Assembly: GCF_003790525.1 (NCBI RefSeq)
Contig: NZ_CP033635.1
DNA: 64,000 bases
DNA from: Escherichia coli
Lineage (GTDB): Bacteria; Pseudomonadota; Gammaproteobacteria; Enterobacterales; Enterobacteriaceae
Strand: one strand, 5' to 3'
Made by a program: the position numbers and the translations under genes. A model generated the notes under the pieces. It worked only from the letters and a program-made list of their open reading frames with translations. It searched no databases and had not been told where the DNA came from. Within the stretch, counting starts at the first letter, position 1. Every line of letters starts with the position of its first letter. Shown here piece after piece: positions 507 to 57,131 of this stretch.

Positions 507-3011
507 ATGTCACAAACTATCGACCTGACCCTGGACGGCCTGTCCTGCGGTCACTGCGTTAAACGCGTGAAAGAAAGTCTCGAACAGCGCCCGGATGTTG
601 AGCAGGCGGATGTGTCTGTCACTGAAGCGCACGTTACCGGGACTGCCAGTGCAGAACAGCTGATCGAAACCATCAAACAAGCGGGTTATGACGCATCTGT
701 AAGCCACCCAAAGGCTAAACCGCTGGCGGAGTCATCAATCCCGTCGGAAGCACTGACAGCGGTTTCTGAGGCGCTTCCGGCAGCGACCGCCGATGACGAT
801 GACAGCCAGCAGTTGCTGCTGAGCGGCATGAGCTGCGCCAGCTGTGTCACCCGCGTACAAAATGCGCTGCAAAGCGTACCGGGCGTCACTCAGGCACGGG
901 TAAACCTGGCGGAGCGTACTGCGCTGGTGATGGGCAGTGCCTCCCCACAAGATTTAGTGCAGGCGGTGGAAAAAGCGGGCTACGGTGCGGAAGCGATTGA
1001 AGATGACGCGAAACGCCGTGAGCGCCAGCAAGAAACCGCCGTCGCTACGATGAAGCGCTTCCGCTGGCAGGCGATTGTCGCACTGGCGGTGGGTATCCCG
1101 GTGATGGTCTGGGGGATGATCGGCGATAACATGATGGTCACCGCCGACAACCGCAGCCTGTGGTTGGTTATCGGCCTGATAACCCTGGCGGTAATGTTTT
1201 TCGCCGGCGGGCATTTTTACCGCAGCGCATGGAAAAGCCTGCTGAACGGTGCAGCGACGATGGATACGCTGGTGGCGCTGGGTACTGGCGTGGCGTGGCT
1301 CTATTCGATGAGCGTCAACCTGTGGCCGCAGTGGTTCCCGATGGAAGCGCGACATCTTTACTATGAAGCCAGTGCGATGATTATCGGTCTGATCAATCTC
1401 GGCCATATGCTGGAAGCGCGCGCACGTCAGCGTTCTTCTAAGGCGCTGGAGAAATTACTCGATTTAACCCCACCGACGGCGCGCCTGGTCACCGACGAAG
1501 GTGAAAAAAACGTGCCGCTGGCAGATGTTCAGCCAGGTATGTTACTGCGCCTGACGACCGGCGACCGTGTGCCGGTAGATGGTGAGATTACTCAAGGCGA
1601 AGCGTGGCTGGATGAAGCGATGCTGACGGGCGAACCTATCCCGCAGCAAAAAGGCGAAGGCGATAGCGTCCATGCCGGGACAGTGGTACAGGACGGCAGT
1701 GTGCTGTTTCGTGCCAGTGCGGTCGGCAGCCATACTACGCTGTCACGGATCATTCGCATGGTGCGCCAGGCCCAGAGCAGCAAGCCTGAAATCGGCCAAC
1801 TGGCGGATAAAATCTCAGCCGTATTTGTGCCGGTAGTAGTGGTTATTGCGCTTGTCAGTGCGGCAATCTGGTATTTCTTTGGTCCGGCACCGCAGATTGT
1901 CTATACCCTGGTGATTGCCACCACGGTGCTGATTATTGCCTGTCCGTGTGCGCTGGGACTGGCGACGCCGATGTCGATTATTTCGGGCGTCGGGCGGGCG
2001 GCTGAGTTTGGCGTGCTGGTACGGGACGCCGACGCGCTGCAACGCGCCAGTACGCTCGATACCGTAGTGTTCGATAAAACCGGGACGCTGACCGAAGGTA
2101 AACCGCAGGTTGTCGCAGTGAAAACGTTTGCTGATGTTGATGAAGCGCAGGCATTGCGTCTGGCGGCGGCACTGGAGCAAGGTTCCAGCCATCCGCTGGC
2201 ACGAGCGATCCTCGATAAAGCAGGCGATATGCAGCTGCCGCAGGTCAACGGTTTCCGCACATTGCGCGGGCTGGGCGTGAGCGGTGAAGCTGAAGGTCAT
2301 GCGTTATTGCTGGGCAATCAGGCGCTGTTAAATGAGCAACAGGTTGATACCAAAGCTATCGAAGCGGAGATTACTGCTCAGGCATCGCAAGGGGCAACGC
2401 CTGTGCTGCTGGCGGTTGACGGGAAAGCGGTAGCCCTGCTGGCTGTACGCGATCCATTGCGTAGTGATAGCGTGGCGGCGCTGCAACGCCTGCATAAAGC
2501 GGGATATCGTCTGGTGATGTTGACCGGGGATAACCCAACCACCGCCAATGCGATCGCCAAAGAAGCCGGGATTGATGAGGTGATCGCCGGGGTGCTGCCG
2601 GACGGTAAAGCCGAAGCGATTAAACGCCTGCAAAGTGAAGGACGTCAGGTGGCAATGGTGGGCGACGGCATTAACGACGCGCCAGCGCTGGCTCAGGCGG
2701 ATGTCGGTATTGCGATGGGTGGCGGCAGTGATGTTGCCATTGAAACCGCGGCGATTACCCTGATGCGCCATAGCCTGATGGGTGTTGCGGATGCGCTCGC
2801 GATTTCCCGCGCAACGCTGCGCAATATGAAGCAGAACCTGCTCGGTGCGTTTATCTACAACAGCATTGGTATTCCGGTCGCCGCCGGTATTTTGTGGCCG
2901 TTCACCGGTACGCTGCTTAACCCGGTGGTTGCCGGAGCGGCAATGGCGCTCTCGTCGATTACCGTAGTGAGTAACGCCAACCGGTTGCTGCGGTTTAAAC
3001 CGAAGGAATAA
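507..3011 (+). CDS. copA: Cu(I)-translocating P1B-type ATPase CopA (834 aa)
   Basis: ORF track 834 aa; two N-terminal heavy-metal-binding motifs ([16 protein letters not shown]), membrane CPC motif, DKTGT phosphorylation site, GDGINDAP hinge; AAAGGAG SD upstream. Confidence 0.97.
707..718 (+). other. copA: Programmed -1 ribosomal frameshift site inside copA (slippery heptamer C CCA AAG, then GGC TAA in the -1 frame), giving the 70-aa CopA(Z) metallochaperone
   Basis: Heptamer at 707-713 is in the X XXY YYZ register for the copA frame (codons 68-69 Pro-Lys); the -1 frame stops two codons later at 716-718, directly after the first HMA domain. Confidence 0.6.
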
Positions 3012-3059
3012 GTATGTCATTGCGGATGCGCTGCTTTAGGGTGGCGCATCTGGCATCGA

Positions 3060-3195
3060 CGCATGCCTGCCGGATGCGGCATAAACGCCTTATCCGGCCT
3101 ACGATTCAGGCACAGGGTTGTAGGCCTGATAAGACGCGTAAGCGTCGCATCAGGCAATGGTGCTCGGATGCCGGATGCCGGATGCGGCGATGTTT
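3060..3195. repeat. REP/BIME cluster (at least two inverted REP units plus a partial unit with a duplicated CCGGATG)
   Basis: GCCTGCCGGATGCGGC...CGCCTTATCCGGCCTAC and TAGGCCTGATAAGACGCG...CGTCGCATCAGGCA palindromic units typical of E. coli REP, in the copA-ybaP intergenic region. Confidence 0.8.
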
Positions 3196-3314
3196 TGGCA
3201 TTACGCGACCTTTTTGCACGTTTTCCCCGGCGTGCCAAATATTTAATCCGTCCCAACTCCATTTGCGCCATCCCTCACCGCGCGCTAGCATGATATTTCA
3301 CAAAGGGAGGTCGT

Positions 3315-4109
3315 ATGGATCTGTTGTACCGGGTAAAAACGCTTTGGGCCGCGCTGCGCGGTAATCATTACACCTGGCCTGCTATCGATATCTCTCTTCC
3401 CGGCAATCGCCATTTTCATCTGATCGGCAGTATTCATATGGGTAGCCACGATATGGCTCCCCTGCCCACCCGTTTGCTCAAAAAGCTCAAAAACGCCGAT
3501 GCGCTGATCGTCGAGGCGGATGTTTCCACCAGCGATACGCCTTTTGCTAATTTGCCTGCCTGCGAGGCGCTGGAAGAGCGCATTAGCGAGGAGCAACTCC
3601 AAAACCTGCAGCACATTAGCCAGGAGATGGGCATTTCTACCTCACTCTTTTCTACCCAACCGCTGTGGCAAATCGCGATGGTTCTTCAGGCGACGCAGGC
3701 ACAAAAACTGGGGCTCCGGGCAGAATATGGTATCGATTACCAGCTATTGCAGGCGGCGAAGCAACAACATAAACCCGTGATTGAACTGGAAGGGGCAGAA
3801 AACCAGATTGCCATGTTGCTCCAGCTCCCTGACAAAGGACTGGCACTGCTGGACGATACGCTGACCCACTGGCACACCAATGCACGGTTGCTGCAACAAA
3901 TGATGAGCTGGTGGCTGAATGCACCGCCGCAAAATAATGAAATAACGCTGCCCAATACGTTCAGTCAGTCGCTGTACGATGTGCTGATGCATCAGCGAAA
4001 TCTCGCCTGGCGGGATAAATTACGCGCCATGCCGCCGGGGCGATATGTGGTCGCGGTCGGTGCACTACACCTGTATGGAGAAGGGAATTTGCCGCAAATG
4101 TTGCGCTAA
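3315..4109 (+). CDS. ybaP: TraB/GumN-family protein YbaP (264 aa)
   Basis: ORF track 264 aa with GGAGG SD upstream; sequence recognised as E. coli YbaP. Confidence 0.85.
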   Translation: MDLLYRVKTLWAALRGNHYTWPAIDISLPGNRHFHLIGSIHMGSHDMAPLPTRLLKKLKNADALIVEADVSTSDTPFANLPACEALEERISEEQLQNLQHISQEMGISTSLFSTQPLWQIAMVLQATQAQKLGLRAEYGIDYQLLQAAKQQHKPVIELEGAENQIAMLLQLPDKGLALLDDTLTHWHTNARLLQQMMSWWLNAPPQNNEITLPNTFSQSLYDVLMHQRNLAWRDKLRAMPPGRYVVAVGALHLYGEGNLPQMLR

Positions 4110-4191
4110 AAAAATGGCCAATATCGCTATTGGCCCGTCAAAGAGGAATTTCATTTTTTTATTATTATGCCGTCACTTTAAGCGACGGTGT
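4108..4191 (-). ncRNA. chiX: ChiX (MicM/SroB/RybC) small regulatory RNA, 84 nt
   Basis: Reverse complement reads ACACCGTCGCTTAAAGTGACGGCATAATAATAAAAAAATGAAATTCCTCTTTGACGGGCCAATAGCGATATTGGCCATTTTTTT, i.e. the ChiX sequence with its GC hairpin and 7-U tail; convergent with ybaP. Confidence 0.85.
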
Positions 4192-4297: not shown

Positions 4298-4792
<495 letters not shown>

Positions 4793-7919: not shown

Positions 7920-7926
7920 TTTCATT

Positions 7927-7960
7927 GCAGCCAAAGGCAAACTTTGGCTGCATCGTTTTA
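7927..7960 (+). terminator. Putative intrinsic terminator after fsr
   Basis: 10-bp stem GCAGCCAAAG/CTTTGGCTGC with 5-nt loop, 8 nt after the fsr stop, followed by ATCGTTTTA (weak T tract). Confidence 0.5.
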
Positions 7961-9840: not shown

Positions 9841-9950
9841 TTGCCGGATAATAGGCGCGGATATGTAGGCCTGATAAGACGCGCCAGCGTCGCATCAGGC
9901 ATTGAGAGCAAAATGCCAGATGCGGCGTGAACGCCTTATCTGGCCTACGA
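9841..9950. repeat. REP/BIME cluster between convergent ybaL and gsk
   Basis: GTAGGCCTGATAAGACGCGCCAGCGTCGCATCAGGC and GCCAGATGCGGCGTGAACGCCTTATCTGGCCTAC REP units. Confidence 0.8.
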
Positions 9951-14249: not shown

Positions 14250-14288
14250 GAAAAGAAAAATGCCGGATGACACAAAGGTCATCCGGCA
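14250..14288 (-). terminator. Intrinsic terminator of htpG
   Basis: 11-bp stem TGCCGGATGAC/GTCATCCGGCA 6 nt after the htpG stop, followed on the transcribed strand by a T-rich run (TTTTTCTTTT). Confidence 0.65.
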
Positions 14289-16217: not shown

Positions 16218-16250
16218 AGAGATGGGGACAAGGGAGAATAATTTCAAGCG
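16218..16250 (-). promoter_or_regulatory. sigma32 heat-shock promoter of htpG
   Basis: Transcribed strand reads CTTGAAA-N14-CCCCATCT about 45 nt upstream of the htpG ATG; matches the sigma32 consensus. Confidence 0.65.
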
Positions 16251-16277
16251 AGAGCAGGTGATCCTGCTCTCGTTTGC

Positions 16278-17264: not shown

Positions 17265-19196
17265 TCAAATGGGGCGGATACTTTCTTCATCCAGCTCCGC
17301 ATCGAAGAATCGACGCAGGGTCTGAATATTATTATCCGCAATAATGGACTCGCGCGCCTGCGCAAGTTTTTCTTCGTATATCGCCTGACGCCATTCCAGC
17401 GGCGTACGCACCGCGGGATTATCATCTTCAACGATAGTCAGTTCAACCGTTGAACCTTTTAACGTGCTCAACGCTTCAGCCAGTTTTTGCTGTGCGCCGC
17501 GGTTGTTCAAATGCCGCTGAGAGGAGCGCAAATGCAGACATACTGCGTTGTCGCTCTCCTCTTTCCAGGCATTTAACGCCACCTGTTCGACCAGTTTTGG
17601 TAGCGAAAGTTGACTCACCTGAGCCGCCCACGGGTCGCGCTCAATGGCTTCTGCCGCCAGCTTCGCCGCCAGTTCCGGCGTTTTTTCATGTTCCAGCGCT
17701 TTTTTCAGCGCCTTCGGCGTGGCGACCACTTCTTTTTGCTGCATCACTGGAGTGGTCGCCTTCCAGCGATACGCTTCTTTTTTGGCTGGCGCTTTTTCCA
17801 GCGCCGATGGCACCGGGCGCGCCTGAACGCGATCGGTGACCGAAGCCAGTCTTTCCAGCGCAGCGTTATTCACCGGCCGCGCGCGGGTAGCGGCTGCCGG
17901 TTCACTCTTTTTTGCTTTGGTTGCTCCCTGCACGCGCTGCAACTGCTGGCGCGCCGCCAGCACCTGGCTGGTGGTTTCCGGGAGCGGTACAGTCGGTGCC
18001 TGCTGCGGCGCTGATTGCGGTTGCGGCGGCACCTGGGTTGGCGTCATTACTGCCGTTGGCGCAACGGGCGCAAAGGACTGGCGTGGCACTTCTGGCTCAG
18101 GCAGAGGCATACGCGGATGGAACGCCAGCGCGCGCAGCAGCGTCATCTCAACGCCCATGCGGCGGTCCGGCGCATACGGTAATTCTTTGCGACCAATCAA
18201 CAGCGTTTGATAGTAAAGCTGAATATCCGTCGGCGGTATGGTACGCGCCAGTTCACGCATCCGCAGCTCGATGGCGGCCATGTCGTTGCCAAGTGCAGCA
18301 GGCGAAAGTTGTACCATCGCAATACGATGCAACAAACCGAGCATTTCCACCAGCAACGCTTCCCACTCGATACCACGGGCAGCAGCTTCATTAATTAGCG
18401 CCATTACGCGCTCGCCGTTGGCCTCGACCATCGCTTCAACCAGCGACAACGCCTGATCGTCGTCAAGCGTACCCAGCATCGCACTGACGGCCTGGGTTGA
18501 AACCTGGCCGTCACCGCTGGCAATCGCCTGGTCGGTCAGACTTAAGGCATCTCGCAAGCTGCCTTCAGCGGCGCGCGCCAGTAATTGCAACGCCCGCGGC
18601 TCGTGAGCGATATGTTCTTCGTTGAGGATGTGCTCAAGCTGATGGCGAATTTGCTCGACATCCAGCGCCTTGAGATGGAATTGCAGACAGCGCGACAAAA
18701 TCGTCACCGGCAATTTCTGCGGATCGGTCGTCGCCAGCAGAAACTTAACGTGCTCCGGCGGCTCTTCAAGGGTTTTTAACAGTGCGTTAAAGCTGTGGCG
18801 CGACAGCATATGCACTTCGTCGATGAGATAAACTTTGAAACGACCACGCGCCGGAGCGTACTGGACGTTATCCAGCAGGTCGCGAGTGTCTTCAACTTTA
18901 GTACGCGAGGCGGCGTCGATTTCAATCAGATCGACAAAGCGCCCCTGCTCGATTTCACGACAGTTATCGCACACGCCGCACGGCGTCGCGGTAATGCCGG
19001 TTTCGCAGTTTAGCCCCTTCGCCAGCAGTCGGGCGATAGAGGTTTTTCCGACGCCACGGGTACCGGAAAAAAGATAAGCATGATGAATACGCCCTAACGA
19101 CAAGCCGTTCGCCAGTGCGGTCAGCACATGTTCCTGGCCGACGACGTCAGCAAAGGTTTGTGGGCGCCATTTTCGGGCTAAGACCTGATAACTCAT
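17265..19196 (-). CDS. dnaX: DNA polymerase III subunits tau (full length, 643 aa) and gamma (via frameshift)
   Basis: ORF track 643 aa; AAA+ Walker A GTRGVGKT; contains the known frameshift heptamer. Confidence 0.97.
   Translation of the reverse strand: MSYQVLARKWRPQTFADVVGQEHVLTALANGLSLGRIHHAYLFSGTRGVGKTSIARLLAKGLNCETGITATPCGVCDNCREIEQGRFVDLIEIDAASRTKVEDTRDLLDNVQYAPARGRFKVYLIDEVHMLSRHSFNALLKTLEEPPEHVKFLLATTDPQKLPVTILSRCLQFHLKALDVEQIRHQLEHILNEEHIAHEPRALQLLARAAEGSLRDALSLTDQAIASGDGQVSTQAVSAMLGTLDDDQALSLVEAMVEANGERVMALINEAAARGIEWEALLVEMLGLLHRIAMVQLSPAALGNDMAAIELRMRELARTIPPTDIQLYYQTLLIGRKELPYAPDRRMGVEMTLLRALAFHPRMPLPEPEVPRQSFAPVAPTAVMTPTQVPPQPQSAPQQAPTVPLPETTSQVLAARQQLQRVQGATKAKKSEPAAATRARPVNNAALERLASVTDRVQARPVPSALEKAPAKKEAYRWKATTPVMQQKEVVATPKALKKALEHEKTPELAAKLAAEAIERDPWAAQVSQLSLPKLVEQVALNAWKEESDNAVCLHLRSSQRHLNNRGAQQKLAEALSTLKGSTVELTIVEDDNPAVRTPLEWRQAIYEEKLAQARESIIADNNIQTLRRFFDAELDEESIRPI
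17907..17913 (-). other. dnaX: dnaX programmed -1 ribosomal frameshift heptamer (A AAA AAG) producing the gamma subunit
   Basis: Reverse complement of 17907-17913 is AAAAAAG, in register with dnaX codons 428-430 (AKKSEPAA context); GC-rich hairpin-capable sequence follows. Confidence 0.85.
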
Positions 19197-24879: not shown

Positions 24880-25527
24880 TTATTCGTTAGTGGCAGGATT
24901 ACGAAGCGTGGGGCACAGGAGATACATCTCCAGTAAGATGGCGACGTAATCGCGGGCTTCTTTTTTAAGATCAAAAGATTGCGGGGCAAAGAGCCAGTTT
25001 TCCATCAGGCCGGAAATATAGCCGCGCATAATAATTGCTGCGCGACGCGTCATTAAATCCGCAGGCAACATTTTCGCTTCAATACAATGTTTTAACGTTT
25101 GTTCTATACGGTCATAACTTTCCAGACAGAGATTACGTTGTGCCTGTTGCACAACAGCCATTTCTCCGACAAATTCGCATTTGTGGAATATAATCTCCAT
25201 CAATAATCGACGCCGTTCTTCTGTCACCGTGGATTCAAGAACATGAATTAATATCTCTCTTAATACTGAGAGTGGATCGCCAGGGAATTTTGCCTGATAC
25301 TCAAGCTCTAGTTCACCAATATTGGATTCTGACAGTTCCCAGATCTCACTGAACAAATCCGACTTGTCTTTAAAATGCCAGTAGATTGCACCGCGCGTAA
25401 CGCCAGCTGCTTTTGCAATCTCGCCCAGCGAGGTGGATGATACCCCCTGCTGTGAGAAAAGACGTAGAGCCACATCGAGGATGTGTTGGCGCGTTTCTTG
25501 CGCTTCTTGTTTGGTTTTTCGTGCCAT
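24880..25527 (-). CDS. acrR: TetR-family repressor AcrR (215 aa)
   Basis: ORF track 215 aa; N-terminal TetR HTH; divergent from acrA. Confidence 0.95.
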
Positions 25528-25555
25528 ATGTTCGTGAATTTACAGGCGTTAGATT

Positions 25556-25579
25556 TACATACATTTGTGAATGTATGTA
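25556..25579. promoter_or_regulatory. AcrR operator, 24-bp perfect palindrome TACATACATTTGTGAATGTATGTA in the acrR-acrA divergent promoter region
   Basis: Perfect inverted repeat read directly at 25556-25579, between the acrR start (25527) and the acrA start (25669). Confidence 0.8.
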
Positions 25580-25668
25580 CCATAGCACGACGATAATATA
25601 AACGCAGCAATGGGTTTATTAACTTTTGACCATTGACCAATTTGAAATCGGACACTCGAGGTTTACAT

Positions 25669-26862
25669 ATGAACAAAAACAGAGGGTTTACGCCTCTGGC
25701 GGTCGTTCTGATGCTCTCAGGCAGCTTAGCCCTAACAGGATGTGACGACAAACAGGCCCAACAAGGTGGCCAGCAGATGCCCGCCGTTGGCGTAGTAACA
25801 GTCAAAACTGAACCTCTGCAGATCACAACCGAGCTTCCGGGTCGCACCAGTGCCTACCGGATCGCAGAAGTTCGTCCTCAAGTTAGCGGGATTATCCTGA
25901 AGCGTAATTTCAAAGAAGGTAGCGACATCGAAGCAGGTGTCTCTCTCTATCAGATTGATCCTGCGACCTATCAGGCGGCATACGACAGTGCGAAAGGTGA
26001 TCTGGCGAAAGCCCAGGCTGCAGCCAATATCGCGCAATTGACGGTGAATCGTTATCAGAAATTGCTCGGTACTCAGTACATCAGTAAGCAAGAGTACGAT
26101 CAGGCTCTGGCTGATGCGCAACAGGCGAATGCTGCGGTCACTGCGGCGAAAGCTGCCGTTGAAACTGCGCGGATCAATCTGGCTTACACCAAAGTCACCT
26201 CGCCGATTAGCGGTCGCATTGGTAAGTCGAACGTGACAGAAGGCGCATTGGTACAGAACGGTCAGGCGACTGCGCTGGCAACCGTGCAGCAACTTGATCC
26301 GATCTACGTTGATGTGACCCAGTCCAGCAACGACTTCCTGCGCCTGAAACAGGAACTGGCAAATGGCACGCTGAAACAAGAGAACGGCAAAGCCAAAGTG
26401 TCGCTGATCACCAGTGACGGCATTAAGTTCCCGCAGGACGGTACGCTGGAATTCTCTGACGTTACCGTTGATCAGACCACCGGGTCTATCACCCTACGCG
26501 CTATCTTCCCGAACCCGGATCACACTCTGCTGCCGGGTATGTTCGTACGTGCGCGTCTGGAAGAAGGGCTTAATCCAAACGCTATTTTAGTCCCGCAACA
26601 GGGCGTAACCCGTACGCCGCGTGGCGATGCCACCGTACTGGTGGTTGGCGCGGATGACAAAGTGGAAACCCGTCCGATCGTTGCAAGCCAGGCTATCGGC
26701 GATAAGTGGCTGGTGACAGAAGGTCTGAAAGCAGGCGATCGCGTAGTAATAAGTGGGCTGCAGAAAGTGCGTCCTGGTGTCCAGGTAAAAGCACAAGAAG
26801 TTACCGCTGATAATAACCAGCAAGCCGCAAGCGGTGCTCAGCCTGAACAGTCCAAGTCTTAA
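25669..26862 (+). CDS. acrA: Multidrug efflux periplasmic adaptor AcrA (397 aa), lipoprotein
   Basis: Track ORF starts 36 nt upstream; start taken as MNKNRGFTPLAVVLMLSGSLALTGC (lipobox). Confidence 0.95.
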   Translation: MNKNRGFTPLAVVLMLSGSLALTGCDDKQAQQGGQQMPAVGVVTVKTEPLQITTELPGRTSAYRIAEVRPQVSGIILKRNFKEGSDIEAGVSLYQIDPATYQAAYDSAKGDLAKAQAAANIAQLTVNRYQKLLGTQYISKQEYDQALADAQQANAAVTAAKAAVETARINLAYTKVTSPISGRIGKSNVTEGALVQNGQATALATVQQLDPIYVDVTQSSNDFLRLKQELANGTLKQENGKAKVSLITSDGIKFPQDGTLEFSDVTVDQTTGSITLRAIFPNPDHTLLPGMFVRARLEEGLNPNAILVPQQGVTRTPRGDATVLVVGADDKVETRPIVASQAIGDKWLVTEGLKAGDRVVISGLQKVRPGVQVKAQEVTADNNQQAASGAQPEQSKS

Positions 26863-26881: not shown

Positions 26882-30034
<3,153 letters not shown>

Positions 30035-34725: not shown

Positions 34726-34839
34726 GGGTGGGGGCCCTGCCAGCTACATCCCGGCACACGCGTCATCTGCCTTGGCTGCTTCCTTCCGGACCTGACCTGG
34801 TAAACAGAGTAGCGTTGCGGGAGAACCAACAGAGCCCCC
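34726..34839 (-). ncRNA. ffs: 4.5S RNA (signal recognition particle RNA), 114 nt
   Basis: Reverse complement reads GGGGGCTCTGTTGGTTCTCCCGCAACGCTACTCTGTTTACCAGGTCAGGTCCGGAAGGAAGCAGCCAAGGCAGATGACGCGTGTGCCGGGATGTAGCTGGCAGGGCCCCCACCC, the E. coli 4.5S RNA. Confidence 0.95.
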
Positions 34840-34915: not shown

Positions 34916-35305
34916 ATGCTGGTTTCTTGCGCAATGCGACTTCACTCGGGCGTTTTTCCAGATTATGCTGAAAAATTACCTCAGGAAGAAAAGATGGAAA
35001 AAGAAGATTCATTTCCCCAACGCGTCTGGCAAATCGTCGCCGCTATTCCCGAAGGCTATGTCACCACTTACGGTGATGTGGCGAAACTGGCAGGATCGCC
35101 CCGCGCCGCGCGCCAGGTGGGCGGTGTGTTAAAGCGTCTCCCTGAAGGCAGCACCTTGCCCTGGCACCGGGTGGTTAATCGCCACGGCACAATTTCGCTA
35201 ACCGGACCGGATTTACAGCGTCAACGACAGGCATTACTGGCAGAAGGTGTGATGGTATCGGGAAGCGGGCAAATCGACTTGCAGCGTTATCGCTGGAACT
35301 ACTAA
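34916..35305 (+). CDS. atl: DNA base-flipping protein Atl (YbaZ), alkyltransferase-like, 129 aa
   Basis: Track ORF 136 aa; start taken at ATG 34916; MGMT-like C-terminal domain without the catalytic cysteine context (TYGDVAKLAGSPRAARQVG). Confidence 0.85.
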   Translation: MLVSCAMRLHSGVFPDYAEKLPQEEKMEKEDSFPQRVWQIVAAIPEGYVTTYGDVAKLAGSPRAARQVGGVLKRLPEGSTLPWHRVVNRHGTISLTGPDLQRQRQALLAEGVMVSGSGQIDLQRYRWNY

Positions 35306-35327
35306 CCCTCTCCGGGCGGAGAGGGTT
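35304..35327. terminator. Hairpin between convergent atl and ybaY (putative bidirectional terminator)
   Basis: 10-bp perfect stem AACCCTCTCC/GGAGAGGGTT with GGGC loop between the two stop codons; no strong U tract on either side. Confidence 0.45.
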
Positions 35328-35335
35328 AACTGCGC

Positions 35336-46885: not shown

Positions 46886-46938
46886 AGCGCAATAACCTTA
46901 CGTTGTTTTTATAAAAACTGTTATAAGTACAGAGGTCA

Positions 46939-49384
<2,446 letters not shown>

Positions 49385-50056: not shown

Positions 50057-52411
50057 CTATTTTGCAGTCACAACCTGCATGCCAGACGGTTCATTTTGCA
50101 GCGCCAGAGTCAGAACTTCCTCAATGCGTTTCACAGGATGAATATCCAGATCGGCAATTACGTTGTCAGGAATCTCTTCCAGATCGCGTTTATTTTCGAA
50201 CGGAATTAACACTGTTTTAATCCCGCCGCGATGCGCTGCCAGTAGTTTTTCTTTCAAACCACCGATAGGCAGTACCTGACCACGCAGAGTGATCTCACCG
50301 GTCATTGCCACATCGGCACGAACCGGGTTACCGGTCAGGCAAGAAACCAGCGCGGTGCACATAGCAATACCGGCACTCGGACCATCTTTCGGCGTCGCAC
50401 CTTCCGGTACGTGGACGTGGATGTCGCGTTTTTCATAAAAATCAGGGTTGATCCCCAGTTTTTCCGCACGCGCACGAACCACCGTTAACGCCGCCTGAAT
50501 GGACTCCTGCATCACTTCGCCAAGCGATCCGGTATAGGTCAGTTTGCCTTTACCCGGAACGCACGCGGTTTCAATGGTCAGCAAGTCACCGCCCACTTCC
50601 GTCCACGCCAGACCAGTTACCTGACCGACACGGTTTTCGTTATCCGCGCGACCATAGTCGAAACGCTGAACACCGAGATAGTCATGCAGGTTATCGCCGT
50701 TAATTTCGATATGTTTTAATGACTTATCGAGCAGTAACTGCTTAACCGCTTTGCGACACAGTTTGGAGATTTCACGCTCCAGACCACGCACGCCCGCCTC
50801 ACGGGTGTAGTAACGAATAATGCCGATAATGGCGCTATCGTCGACGGTCAGCTCACCTTTTTTCAGTGCATTACGTTCAATCTGCTTCGGCAGCAGGTGA
50901 CGTTTGGCGATGTTCAGTTTTTCATCTTCGGTATAACCGGAGAGGCGAATCACTTCCATACGATCCAGCAGCGGTGCCGGAATGTTCATGGAGTTCGACG
51001 TCGCGACAAACATCACGTCGCTAAGGTCGTAATCCACTTCCAGGTAGTGGTCGCTGAACGCTACGTTCTGCTCTGGATCCAGCACTTCAAGCAGTGCGGA
51101 AGCCGGATCGCCTCGCATGTCAGAAGACATTTTGTCGATCTCATCGAGCAGGAACAGCGGGTTTTTCACGCCCACTTTCGCCATTTTCTGGATCAGTTTA
51201 CCCGGCATAGAACCGATGTAAGTACGGCGGTGACCACGGATTTCCGCTTCATCACGCACGCCGCCCAGCGCCATACGGACATATTTACGCCCGGTGGCTT
51301 TGGCGATGGACTGCCCCAGGGACGTTTTACCTACCCCCGGTGGCCCTACCAGGCAGAGGATCGGTCCCTTGATTTTGTTGACACGGCTTTGAACCGCAAG
51401 ATACTCAAGGATGCGATCTTTCACGCGCTCCAGACCATAATGGTCGGTATCAAGGATTTCCTGCGCCTGACGCAGGTCTTTTTTGACCTTGCTACGCGCA
51501 TTCCACGGTACCTGTACCATCCAGTCGATATAACCACGCACTACGGTCGCTTCTGCCGACATCGGAGACATCATTTTCAGCTTCTGCAACTCTGCTTCCG
51601 CTTTCTCTTTTGCCTCTTTCGGCATTTTCGCCGCGTCGATTTTGCGCTTCAGGGCTTCGTTTTCGTCCGGCGCGTCGTCCATTTCACCGAGTTCTTTCTG
51701 AATAGCTTTCATTTGCTCGTTCAGATAGTACTCACGCTGGGATTTCTCCATCTGCTTTTTAACACGGTTGCGAATGCGTTTCTCAACCTGCAGCAGATCG
51801 ATTTCCGATTCCATCATTGCCATCAGATATTCCAGACGTTCGTTAACGTCGGACATCTCCAGAACGGACTGTTTGTCAGCCAGTTTCAGCGGCATATGTG
51901 CAGCAATGGTATCCGCCAGACGCGCCGGATCGTCGATGCTATTCAGCGACGTCAGCACTTCTGGTGGAATTTTTTTGTTCAGCTTGATGTAGCCTTCGAA
52001 CTGGCTGATTGCAGTACGCACCAGCACTTCCTGTTCCCGCTCATCAATGGTCGGCGACTCCAGATACTCCGCCTTCGCAGAAAAGTGTTCGCCATTGTCA
52101 GAGAGCGCAGAAATACGCGCGCGCTGTAACCCCTCGACCAGCACTTTGACGGTGCCGTCAGGCAGTTTCAGCATCTGCAATATAGAGGCCACGGTCCCGA
52201 CGGTGAAAAGATCGTTTACACCCGGCTCATCCGTTGAAGCTTCTTTCTGCGCGACCAGCATAATTTTTTTATCATGGTCCATCGCCGCTTCCAGACAACG
52301 GATAGATTTTTCCCGCCCGACAAATAAGGGGATGACCATGTGCGGATAAACCACCACATCGCGCAGCGGCAATACGGGGATTTCAATGCGTTCAGAACGC
52401 TCAGGATTCAT
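50057..52411 (-). CDS. lon: ATP-dependent protease Lon (784 aa)
   Basis: Track ORF 799 aa; start taken as [23 protein letters not shown] (ATG 52409-52411); Walker [10 protein letters not shown]; protease active site DGPSAG. Confidence 0.97.
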
Positions 52412-52493
52412 AGAGCTCTCTCTTAGTTTAATTTCCGCCAGGTAATCAGATGACACGACTGTGCTTCACGCCATCTATTAACATGTACGTCAG

Positions 52494-52524
52494 TATATGG
52501 GGATGTTTCCCCCACATTCAACGC
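52494..52524 (-). promoter_or_regulatory. sigma32 heat-shock promoter of lon
   Basis: Transcribed strand reads GTTGAAT-N13-CCCCATAT about 75 nt upstream of the lon ATG. Confidence 0.65.
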
Positions 52525-52536
52525 CGAGAATAGAGG

Positions 52537-52570
52537 AAAAATTAAAGGGGAGATAAAATCCCCCCTTTTT
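52537..52570 (-). terminator. Putative terminator after clpX
   Basis: Short GC stem GGGGA/TCCCC with 7-nt loop followed on the transcribed strand by TTTAATTTTT, 30 nt after the clpX stop. Confidence 0.5.
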
Positions 52571-52598
52571 GGTTAACTAATTGTATGGGAATGGTTAA

Positions 52599-54867: not shown

Positions 54868-56175
<1,308 letters not shown>

Positions 56176-56426
56176 TCAAAAAATCACAGTGCTCGGTCAA
56201 CTCTTACCCCGCAAGCACAGGTTGTTGGCTTCGCGGAACCGGGATGTTCTTATAATCAATCACATTCCCTGTTACCAGAATCATCCCGAAAGCATTCAAA
56301 TAGGACGCGGCATTATAGCGGCATCACTTTTATGAGTCGAGAACGGTTATTGCGCGCTGTCGCGTATTTTTTCACAATTCCCGGGCAATTTTCGTCTGAA
56401 TGCTGGGCAAAAAGCGCAAAATCCAG

Positions 56427-56452
56427 ACAAAACAAAACGGCCCGCAGGCCGT
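56427..56452 (-). terminator. Putative intrinsic terminator of bolA
   Basis: ACGGCC-CGCA-GGCCGT hairpin followed on the transcribed strand by TTTGTTTTGT, about 58 nt after the bolA stop. Confidence 0.55.
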
Positions 56453-56509
56453 TTTTCATAAAATCTTTAGCAACATACTGGAAAAGCGCCGACAGTTGCA
56501 AATGCGTTT

Positions 56510-56827
56510 TTACGCGATGCTTCCTGCTCCACGACAGGGAGGAGAGGCAAAGACGGTGTCCTGCAACCCTTCCCACTCCTTAATAGTGTAAGTATGCAGA
56601 GCCAGCGCATGAACGGTAGTAGAGAGTTCCTCCGCTAAAGTACTGTAAATCATTCGATGACGATTCAGAAAACGTTCACCCGTAAAACGATCGCTGACCA
56701 GCACAACTTTAAAATGGCTTTCAGAGCCGGCTGGGACATTGTGACGATAGCTTTCATCCACTACTTCGAGGAATACGGGTTGGAACGCCGCCCTTAATTT
56801 TTCTTCTATCCGCTCACGTATCATCAT
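56510..56827 (-). CDS. bolA: Morphogene/stress regulator BolA (105 aa)
   Basis: Track ORF 116 aa; start taken as [17 protein letters not shown] at ATG 56825-56827. Confidence 0.9.
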
Positions 56828-57131
56828 GAAATATCTCCTCCGACAACGCTGAGATGTCATCCATCCCTTTAAATACTAGCCGCTTTTACCGTTTCCATTG
56901 CAGCTTAACAACAAATATTTAGGTTTCGTCCTGGTTTTTCCGTCAAGCGTATGAAGTTTACTGATTTAAAGATTGAAACACAGGCCTCGCATCAGCGTTT
57001 CTTTTACCAGGGGCGATTATTTCGTCAACATGATGAATTTACATGCCTTACCCACTTCCCCTCGCCGTTGGCAATGTTATGATGGCGGGAATTTTTACCA
57101 AACACGCTTAAGAGTCTCTGAGAGCCCGAAC

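Follow-up and report, generated by a model that had tools for sequence, protein, structure and literature searches.

Background

AcrAB-TolC is the main multidrug efflux pump of Escherichia coli, and lesions in acrR or in its operator raise the expression of the pump. Within the TetR family, TetR-tetO is the case of one dimer on a 15-bp palindrome, and QacR is the case of two dimers on one long inverted repeat, from which they are released by the cationic substrates of the pump. The QacR-IR1 site is cited in PMC8053128 (ref 59), according to which MtrR of Neisseria gonorrhoeae recognises MCRTRCR-N4-YGYAYGK through residues T11, R44, G45, Y48, W49 and H50.

For AcrR itself, a binding site has been printed in PMC9769551 and PMC10597343. 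Both papers credit it to Su, Rutherford & Yu 2007, and PMC10597343 describes it as two 10-bp inverted repeats with a 4-bp spacer, for which dimer-of-dimers binding is suggested. AcrR shifts an acrAB promoter fragment in electrophoretic mobility shift assays (EMSA; PMC9769551), and both divergent RNAs are repressed by AcrR in vitro (PMC12825309 Fig. 2b). That 2026 study regards the acrR/acrA region as a bidirectional promoter named PacrA/acrR. Known AcrR ligands in the literature are ethidium, proflavine and rhodamine 6G. The acrAB marbox has been placed in the first 20 nt of acrR, and it is required for full acrAB activation once AcrR is inactivated (PMC11642870). In addition, the paralogue EnvR/AcrS is described as a user of the AcrR palindrome (PMC9780535, PMC6790063), and in Salmonella alternate-base mutations in both arms abolish EnvR binding (PMC9780535).

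The AcrR operator

The whole stretch of E. coli DNA that was analysed, 64,000 nucleotides (64 kb) in length, is called the window here. The 24-mer TACATACATTTGTGAATGTATGTA was found exactly where the first-pass annotation had put it, in the gap between acrR and acrA (Table 1). It is identical at 24 of 24 positions to the AcrR-binding site printed in PMC9769551 and PMC10597343. The annotation had expected AcrR to bind here and had named a mismatch to the experimentally defined site as the observation that would speak against this; the alignment contained zero mismatch, and the products of acrR, acrA and acrB all reached the equivalog cut-offs of their families. On this identity, the 24-bp element in the bidirectional acrR/acrAB promoter of E. 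coli is almost certainly the operator to which the TetR-family repressor AcrR binds. That AcrR binds and represses in the present strain would follow from the identity to the K-12 fragment that was used in EMSA and in vitro transcription. The operator is already known and published, and it is wild-type and ordinary here.

Table 1. Positions in the window of the features of the acrR-acrAB region
Feature	Position	Strand	Basis or remark
acrR, TetR-family repressor, intact	24880-25527	-	215/215 aa identical to K-12; NF007949
Marbox ATGGCACGAAAAACCAAACA for MarA/SoxS/Rob, first 20 nt of the acrR CDS	25508-25527	-	PMC11642870 and consensus match
acrA -35, TTTACA, overlaps left arm	25554-25559	+	Promoter scan and Table S2 of PMC12825309
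Predicted operator of AcrR (and EnvR/AcrS): arm 10 bp, centre 4 bp, arm 10 bp	25556-25579	.	Exact match to the published site
Left arm TACATACATT, includes half-site ACATACA (25557-25563)	25556-25565	.	
Centre TGTG, not self-complementary	25566-25569	.	
Right arm AATGTATGTA, includes half-site TGTATGT (25572-25578)	25570-25579	.	
acrR transcription start, A, within the operator	25572	-	Table S2 of PMC12825309
acrA -10, TACCAT, overlaps right-arm end	25578-25583	+	Promoter scan and Table S2 of PMC12825309
acrR -10, TATGGT, shares bases with acrA -10	25579-25584	-	Table S2 of PMC12825309
acrA transcription start, G	25589	+	Cappable-seq, Table S2 of PMC12825309
acrR -35, CTGCGT, weak	25602-25607	-	'acrR up' mutation, Table S2 of PMC12825309
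acrA, periplasmic adaptor, 397 aa, ATG at 25669	25669-26862	+	NCBIfam equivalog; T104A vs K-12
acrB, RND permease, 1049 aa	26885-30034	+	NCBIfam equivalog; V129I vs K-12 and SMS-3-5

The site had been called a perfect 24-bp palindrome, which holds for the two 10-bp arms (10/10 complementary) and fails for the centre: TGTG reads CACA on the other strand, so that 20 of the 24 positions are symmetric. The 24-mer occurs once in the window even when up to 3 mismatches are allowed (0/100 shuffles), with no second AcrR site at that threshold. As a bare inverted repeat the operator is only moderately unusual in the window, in which six distinct perfect repeats (arms of at least 10 bp, spacer of at most 8) were found against about 0.5 expected; none of the other five is AT-rich or lies in a divergent promoter region. 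The significance of the operator stems from its identity to the published site and its conservation, not from symmetry statistics.

The other five perfect repeats are GC-rich with arms of 10-12 bp (7926-7952, 14261-14288, 16249-16272, 35303-35328 and 46931-46955). They are located just beyond the gene ends of fsr, htpG/adk, recR/htpG, ybaZ and fadM/ybaV, and are probably intrinsic terminators or REP-type hairpins.

A role of the AcrR repeat as a nucleic-acid hairpin, i.e. a terminator, an RNA regulatory stem or a cruciform, has practically no chance of being right, even if the 24-mer folds as single-stranded DNA at -7.3 kcal/mol (z = -5.2). The 24-mer is never transcribed whole, since the acrA transcript starts downstream of it and the acrR transcript takes in no more than its left 17 nt (25556-25572). 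The arms contain 20% G+C and are followed by no T-run, the terminator scan made no call at the 24-mer, and an Rfam scan of the whole window returned no family in the acrR-acrA region. The hairpin or terminator role was excluded on these grounds.

Genes and promoters around the operator

The repressor gene diverges from the pump operon, acrR running leftwards from 25527 and acrA rightwards from 25669, as the first-pass annotation had it, with the operator in between. AcrR, the cognate repressor, is intact with a TetR-type HTH; it scored 419 bits against the NCBIfam equivalog NF007949 (cut-off 271), and its best PDB match was 2QOP/3BCG over the full length 1-215 (E 1.6e-141). AcrA and AcrB were likewise above their equivalog cut-offs. 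The proposal that operator and acrR are intact was borne out by comparison with K-12: the AcrR protein is identical at 215 of 215 residues with one synonymous difference in the gene, and the 141-bp intergenic region is 100% identical (141/141). Residue R45, known from clinical R45C mutants, is wild-type. The AcrR protein, the marbox and the intergenic region with its 24-mer are thus those of the K-12 acrAB/acrR promoter, which shows no difference at the site. The host itself is phylogroup-F-like, and over the window its identity to K-12 is about 98%.

The longest K-12-identical stretch in the 64 kb is also found here (24943-25978, 1035 bp, against a mean divergence of 1.7%), taking in the intergenic region together with most of acrR and 309 nt at the start of acrA. 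A second low-divergence valley of 1006 bp was observed in the tig-bolA region (55990-56996).

The promoter elements and the cappable-seq starts are K-12 data from Table S2 of PMC12825309, which could be mapped onto the identical sequence of the window with zero mismatch, and an independent promoter scan recovered the same acrA -35 and -10 hexamers. In the same Table S2, the 'acrA down' mutation alters exactly the -35 hexamer TTTACA, and the 'acrR up' mutation changes CTGCGT to TTGACA. The operator extends from -33 to -10 of the acrA promoter, taking in the -35 hexamer, all of the spacer and the beginning of the -10, and at the same time from -7 to +17 of the acrR promoter, where it covers the beginning of the -10, the transcription start and positions +1 to +17. 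With the K-12 starts, the divergent transcripts begin 17 bp apart, inside the 10-23 bp around a shared -10 that is expected of a bidirectional promoter, and TACCAT and TATGGT overlap at 25578-25584. Core promoter elements of both genes are therefore overlapped by the operator, which accounts for the repression of both transcripts by AcrR in vitro.

Marbox

A marbox was to be looked for next to the operator according to the first-pass annotation, and one is present on the minus strand: it occupies the first 20 nt of acrR, which correspond to -81 to -62 of the acrA promoter. The 20-bp consensus AYnGCACnnWnnRYYAAAYn, reportedly from Martin et al. 1999, gave one match in 64 kb, ATGGCACGAAAAACCAAAC at 25509-25527 (-), opening with the acrR start codon (0/100 shuffles). 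Repressor gene, operator, promoters and marbox are all wild-type in sequence in the window.

Conservation of the operator in E. coli

For conservation within the species, 5426 complete E. coli genomes were searched with a 271-bp query (25450-25720) spanning the acrR-acrA intergenic region. The query was matched in 5423 of them and gave no match at all in the other 3. The operator with 10 nt on each side was exact in 5363/5426 genomes, and a variant operator with the centre TATG was exact in 20. The acrR CDS was in one piece (at least 80% coverage) in 5386 genomes and grossly disrupted in about 37, and it was at least 99% identical in 5311/5423.

In E. coli Z1323CEC0008, from chicken, an IS481-family element was seen in the acrR-acrA intergenic region (locus 1963-3048). 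The break, at about 25548/25549 of the window, parts the marbox from the acrA promoter and leaves operator and acrR intact, and the annotated transposase ORF continues into the operator region. The acrR-acrA region was also met in two plasmid-labelled records among the E. coli matches.

Conservation in other species

The pattern TACATACATT-N4-AATGTATGTA was searched in one genome per species and matched at least 120 genomes; since this set was chosen by exact arms, it shows the co-occurrence of arms and helix and not how often the arms vary. At least 114 other species have exact arms beside an AcrR homologue. Such a homologue starts near the site in 115 of the 120 matches listed, mostly at 28-30 bp and at most at 344 bp; these homologues always read away from the site, with an AcrA homologue on the opposite side. 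The matches listed include many genera of Enterobacterales, Aeromonas, one alphaproteobacterium and several Betaproteobacteria (Acidovorax, Ottowia, Comamonas, Polaromonas, Silvimonas and Herbaspirillum).

Nineteen full-length distant AcrR homologues among those listed are 35-43% identical overall, with 62% identity in the DNA-binding domain (residues 1-66) and 27% in the ligand domain. The recognition helix TRGAIYWHF together with T12 is invariant in the 114 homologues listed, apart from one Y49T. Operator arms and AcrR recognition helix evidently travel together across large distances.

No TetR gene is near the exact arms in Thomasclavelia cocleata, Clostridium neonatale and Pseudidiomarina, and these matches were set aside as probably unrelated. 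In a Fulvivirga MAG, an AcrR-like N-terminus lies 15 bp from an exact-arm site. A 467-bp contig assigned to 'Prolixibacteraceae JC049', with an AcrR that is 82% identical, seems to be contamination from an enterobacterium. The exact-arm loci of these outliers are L015 (2314-2337), L054 (410-433), L082 (157-180), L081 (896-919) and L083.

The promoter elements are conserved as well. Among the 88 Enterobacterales loci from the matches listed, the flanks GATT and CCATAGCA, in which the -35, the -10 and the shared -10 are located, show a conservation of about 80-90% or more, and the CCATAGCA flank reaches at least 90%. Both flanks are outside the search pattern. In the same 88 species, from the matches listed, the bases CCAT of the acrA -10 are at least 90% conserved, as is the acrR -10 TATGGT. 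The marbox consensus was found in 70 of the 88 loci from the matches listed.

It could be supposed that the site is conserved only for its bidirectional core promoter elements, with the dyad symmetry being incidental: the operator does overlap the acrA -35/-10, the acrR -10 and the acrR start, and bidirectional promoters are pseudo-symmetrical by nature (PMC12825309). This is very improbable, since most of the 24 bp belong to the -35/-10 spacer, whose individual bases are not read by RNA polymerase, and since the arms are exact in Aeromonas and Betaproteobacteria despite a different flanking promoter sequence. The invariance of the AcrR recognition helix alongside the arms speaks against it too, and so do EMSAs showing direct protein binding (PMC9769551, PMC9780535).

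A further block, ATAATATAAACGCAGCAATGGGTTTAT (25593-25619), also outside the search pattern, is about 90% conserved in the 88 Enterobacterales species listed. Within it are the weak acrR -35 and, spanning +10 to +31 of the acrA mRNA, the imperfect repeat ATAAACGCA/TGGGTTTAT. The fold of the acrA leader RNA (25589-25671) was not significant (z = -0.7), so the conservation of this block is not explained by RNA structure.

Binding geometry

AcrR is homologous to MtrR (E 2.4e-32), for which DNA complexes have been solved; MtrR regulates globally and AcrR mostly locally. All six DNA-contact residues of MtrR are present in AcrR one position later, as T12, R45, G46, Y49, W50 and H51. The outer half-sites ACATACA and TGTATGT of the AcrR site fit the MtrR half-site at 7 of 7 positions (PMC8053128), with the difference that the perfect half-sites are 8 bp apart in the AcrR site and 4 bp apart in MtrR sites. 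Two overlapping 18-mers, 25557-25574 and 25561-25578, fit the MtrR consensus at 1 and 2 mismatches. With up to 2 mismatches permitted, this degenerate consensus shows no enrichment in the window, with 18 matches against 26 expected. Taken alone, the matches of the inner half-sites are thus weak, and the MtrR consensus serves here to interpret the operator without being counted as evidence for it.

The centre was left free by the search pattern and reads Y-R-Y-G in 90 of the 111 species-loci listed, which are phylogenetically related; its third position is a pyrimidine in 105/111 and its fourth a G in 106/111 of the loci listed. The asymmetry of the half-sites is conserved too, the inner half-site on the acrA side being the stronger. 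The YRYG centre weakly hints at inner half-sites read by a second dimer, or at a need for flexible pyrimidine-purine steps.

The stoichiometry of AcrR on the operator and the assignment of half-sites are inferred: each AcrR dimer would pair a perfect outer half-site, ACATACA or TGTATGT, with an imperfect inner one, through MtrR-like contacts of T12, R45, G46, Y49, W50 and H51. On this tentative reading, to which we give a little less than an even chance, the centre may be non-neutral, and the 24-mer would be two overlapping MtrR-type 7-N4-7 sites offset by 4 bp, written in an unusually frozen AcrR-operator code. If this is true, the AcrR recognition code would be common to Enterobacterales, Aeromonas and Betaproteobacteria while the ligand domain drifts to about 27% identity. 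For AcrR the PDB holds the apo structures 2QOP/3BCG and the Salmonella structure 3LHQ only, and no AcrR-DNA complex.

QacR-IR1 of Staphylococcus aureus resembles the AcrR site as a long inverted repeat over a multidrug-pump promoter, and two dimers have been proposed for AcrR as well; however, the half-sites are unrelated, IR1 is 28 bp long, and the complex has been solved for QacR and not for AcrR. TetR-tetO shares with AcrR the family, the divergent repressor gene, the operator over the promoters and the ligand-induced release, but has short operators that each bind one dimer, two of them in tandem, and responds to a single specific inducer.

Proposed mechanism and the role of EnvR

Bound AcrR, as the two dimers suggested in the literature, would keep RNA polymerase off both promoters, presumably by steric exclusion. 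Ligands would enter the C-terminal pocket of AcrR and lower its affinity for DNA. MarA, SoxS or Rob could activate at the marbox, 29 bp left of the operator and inside the acrR start, and the paralogue EnvR/AcrS may use the same palindrome as AcrR.

A close case for EnvR is the acrAB palindrome of Salmonella, which is bound by AcrR and EnvR and in which the mutated bases T29 to T37 and A44 to A52 correspond to the arms TACATACATT and AATGTATGTA at the same acrR/acrA position (PMC9780535); it differs from the present case in species, and the arm-mutation experiment was done with EnvR. It might be asked whether the site is chiefly an operator of EnvR (AcrS), the repressor encoded beside acrEF, with AcrR secondary. 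EnvR has a higher affinity than AcrR for the acrAB promoter and represses it more strongly on overexpression, and mutation of the palindrome abolishes EnvR binding; on the other hand, envR expression is negligible in laboratory conditions and envR deletion is without effect (all PMC9780535). The coupling of the site at a fixed distance to a divergent acrR homologue in 115 of the 120 species-loci listed, and the repression of both RNAs by AcrR in vitro (PMC12825309), also make a chiefly EnvR-directed site improbable. Sharing of the site with EnvR is a refinement of the AcrR explanation, not a replacement.

Deletion of acrR alone barely shifts MICs (PMC12825309 Table 1; PMC9780535 Table 2), and AcrR is a modulator only.

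Significance for efflux

The first-pass annotation had taken the intact operator and acrR to argue against derepressed efflux. This stands for the local layer of acrR and operator and not beyond it, with marR, soxR, rob and further regulators located outside the window. Intact acrR and operator are only weakly informative, because this state is common to more than 99% of complete E. coli genomes. The wild-type locus rules out one local route to efflux overexpression in the present strain, and is silent on activation driven by MarR, SoxR or Rob, which matters more.

The invariant arms and helix (in at least 114 species), the YRYG centre and the reading as overlapping sites may aid structural work on AcrR-DNA and the design of synthetic AcrR switches. 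These comparative by-products are refinements of known biology and not a discovery.

Other features of the window

The window is the reverse complement of about 447-511 kb of K-12, to which it is about 98% identical. It is colinear with strain SMS-3-5 (NC_010498.1 475601-539600, reverse complement), with 4 differences in 64,000 bases, at 4497, 13981, 14519 and 27269. Three of these SNPs are nonsynonymous (YbaK V62A, HtpG M550I and AcrB V129I) and the one in adk is silent. Residue 129 of AcrB (codon 129, at 27269) presumably lies between the distal-pocket residues S128 and E130. The 61-mer allele carrying V129I was exact in 295/5402 E. coli genomes, the listed examples being O157-type; V129I is therefore a natural polymorphism, which recurred in or was recombined into the present lineage.

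Lon (50060-52411) is identical to that of K-12 at 784 of 784 residues. The ybaQ gene is absent at about 3178-3250, where a 561-bp segment of K-12 is replaced by about 70 bp beside REP-like GCCGGATGC units, and SMS-3-5 is likewise without a ybaQ annotation at the corresponding place. Five Rfam matches above the gathering score were obtained: sroB (ChiX, 4108-4191), naRNA4 (9868-9945), the DnaX frameshift element (17868-17932), SRP RNA (34735-34831) and sraA in the clpX/lon gap (52483-52578), all of which are expected for such a region of E. coli.
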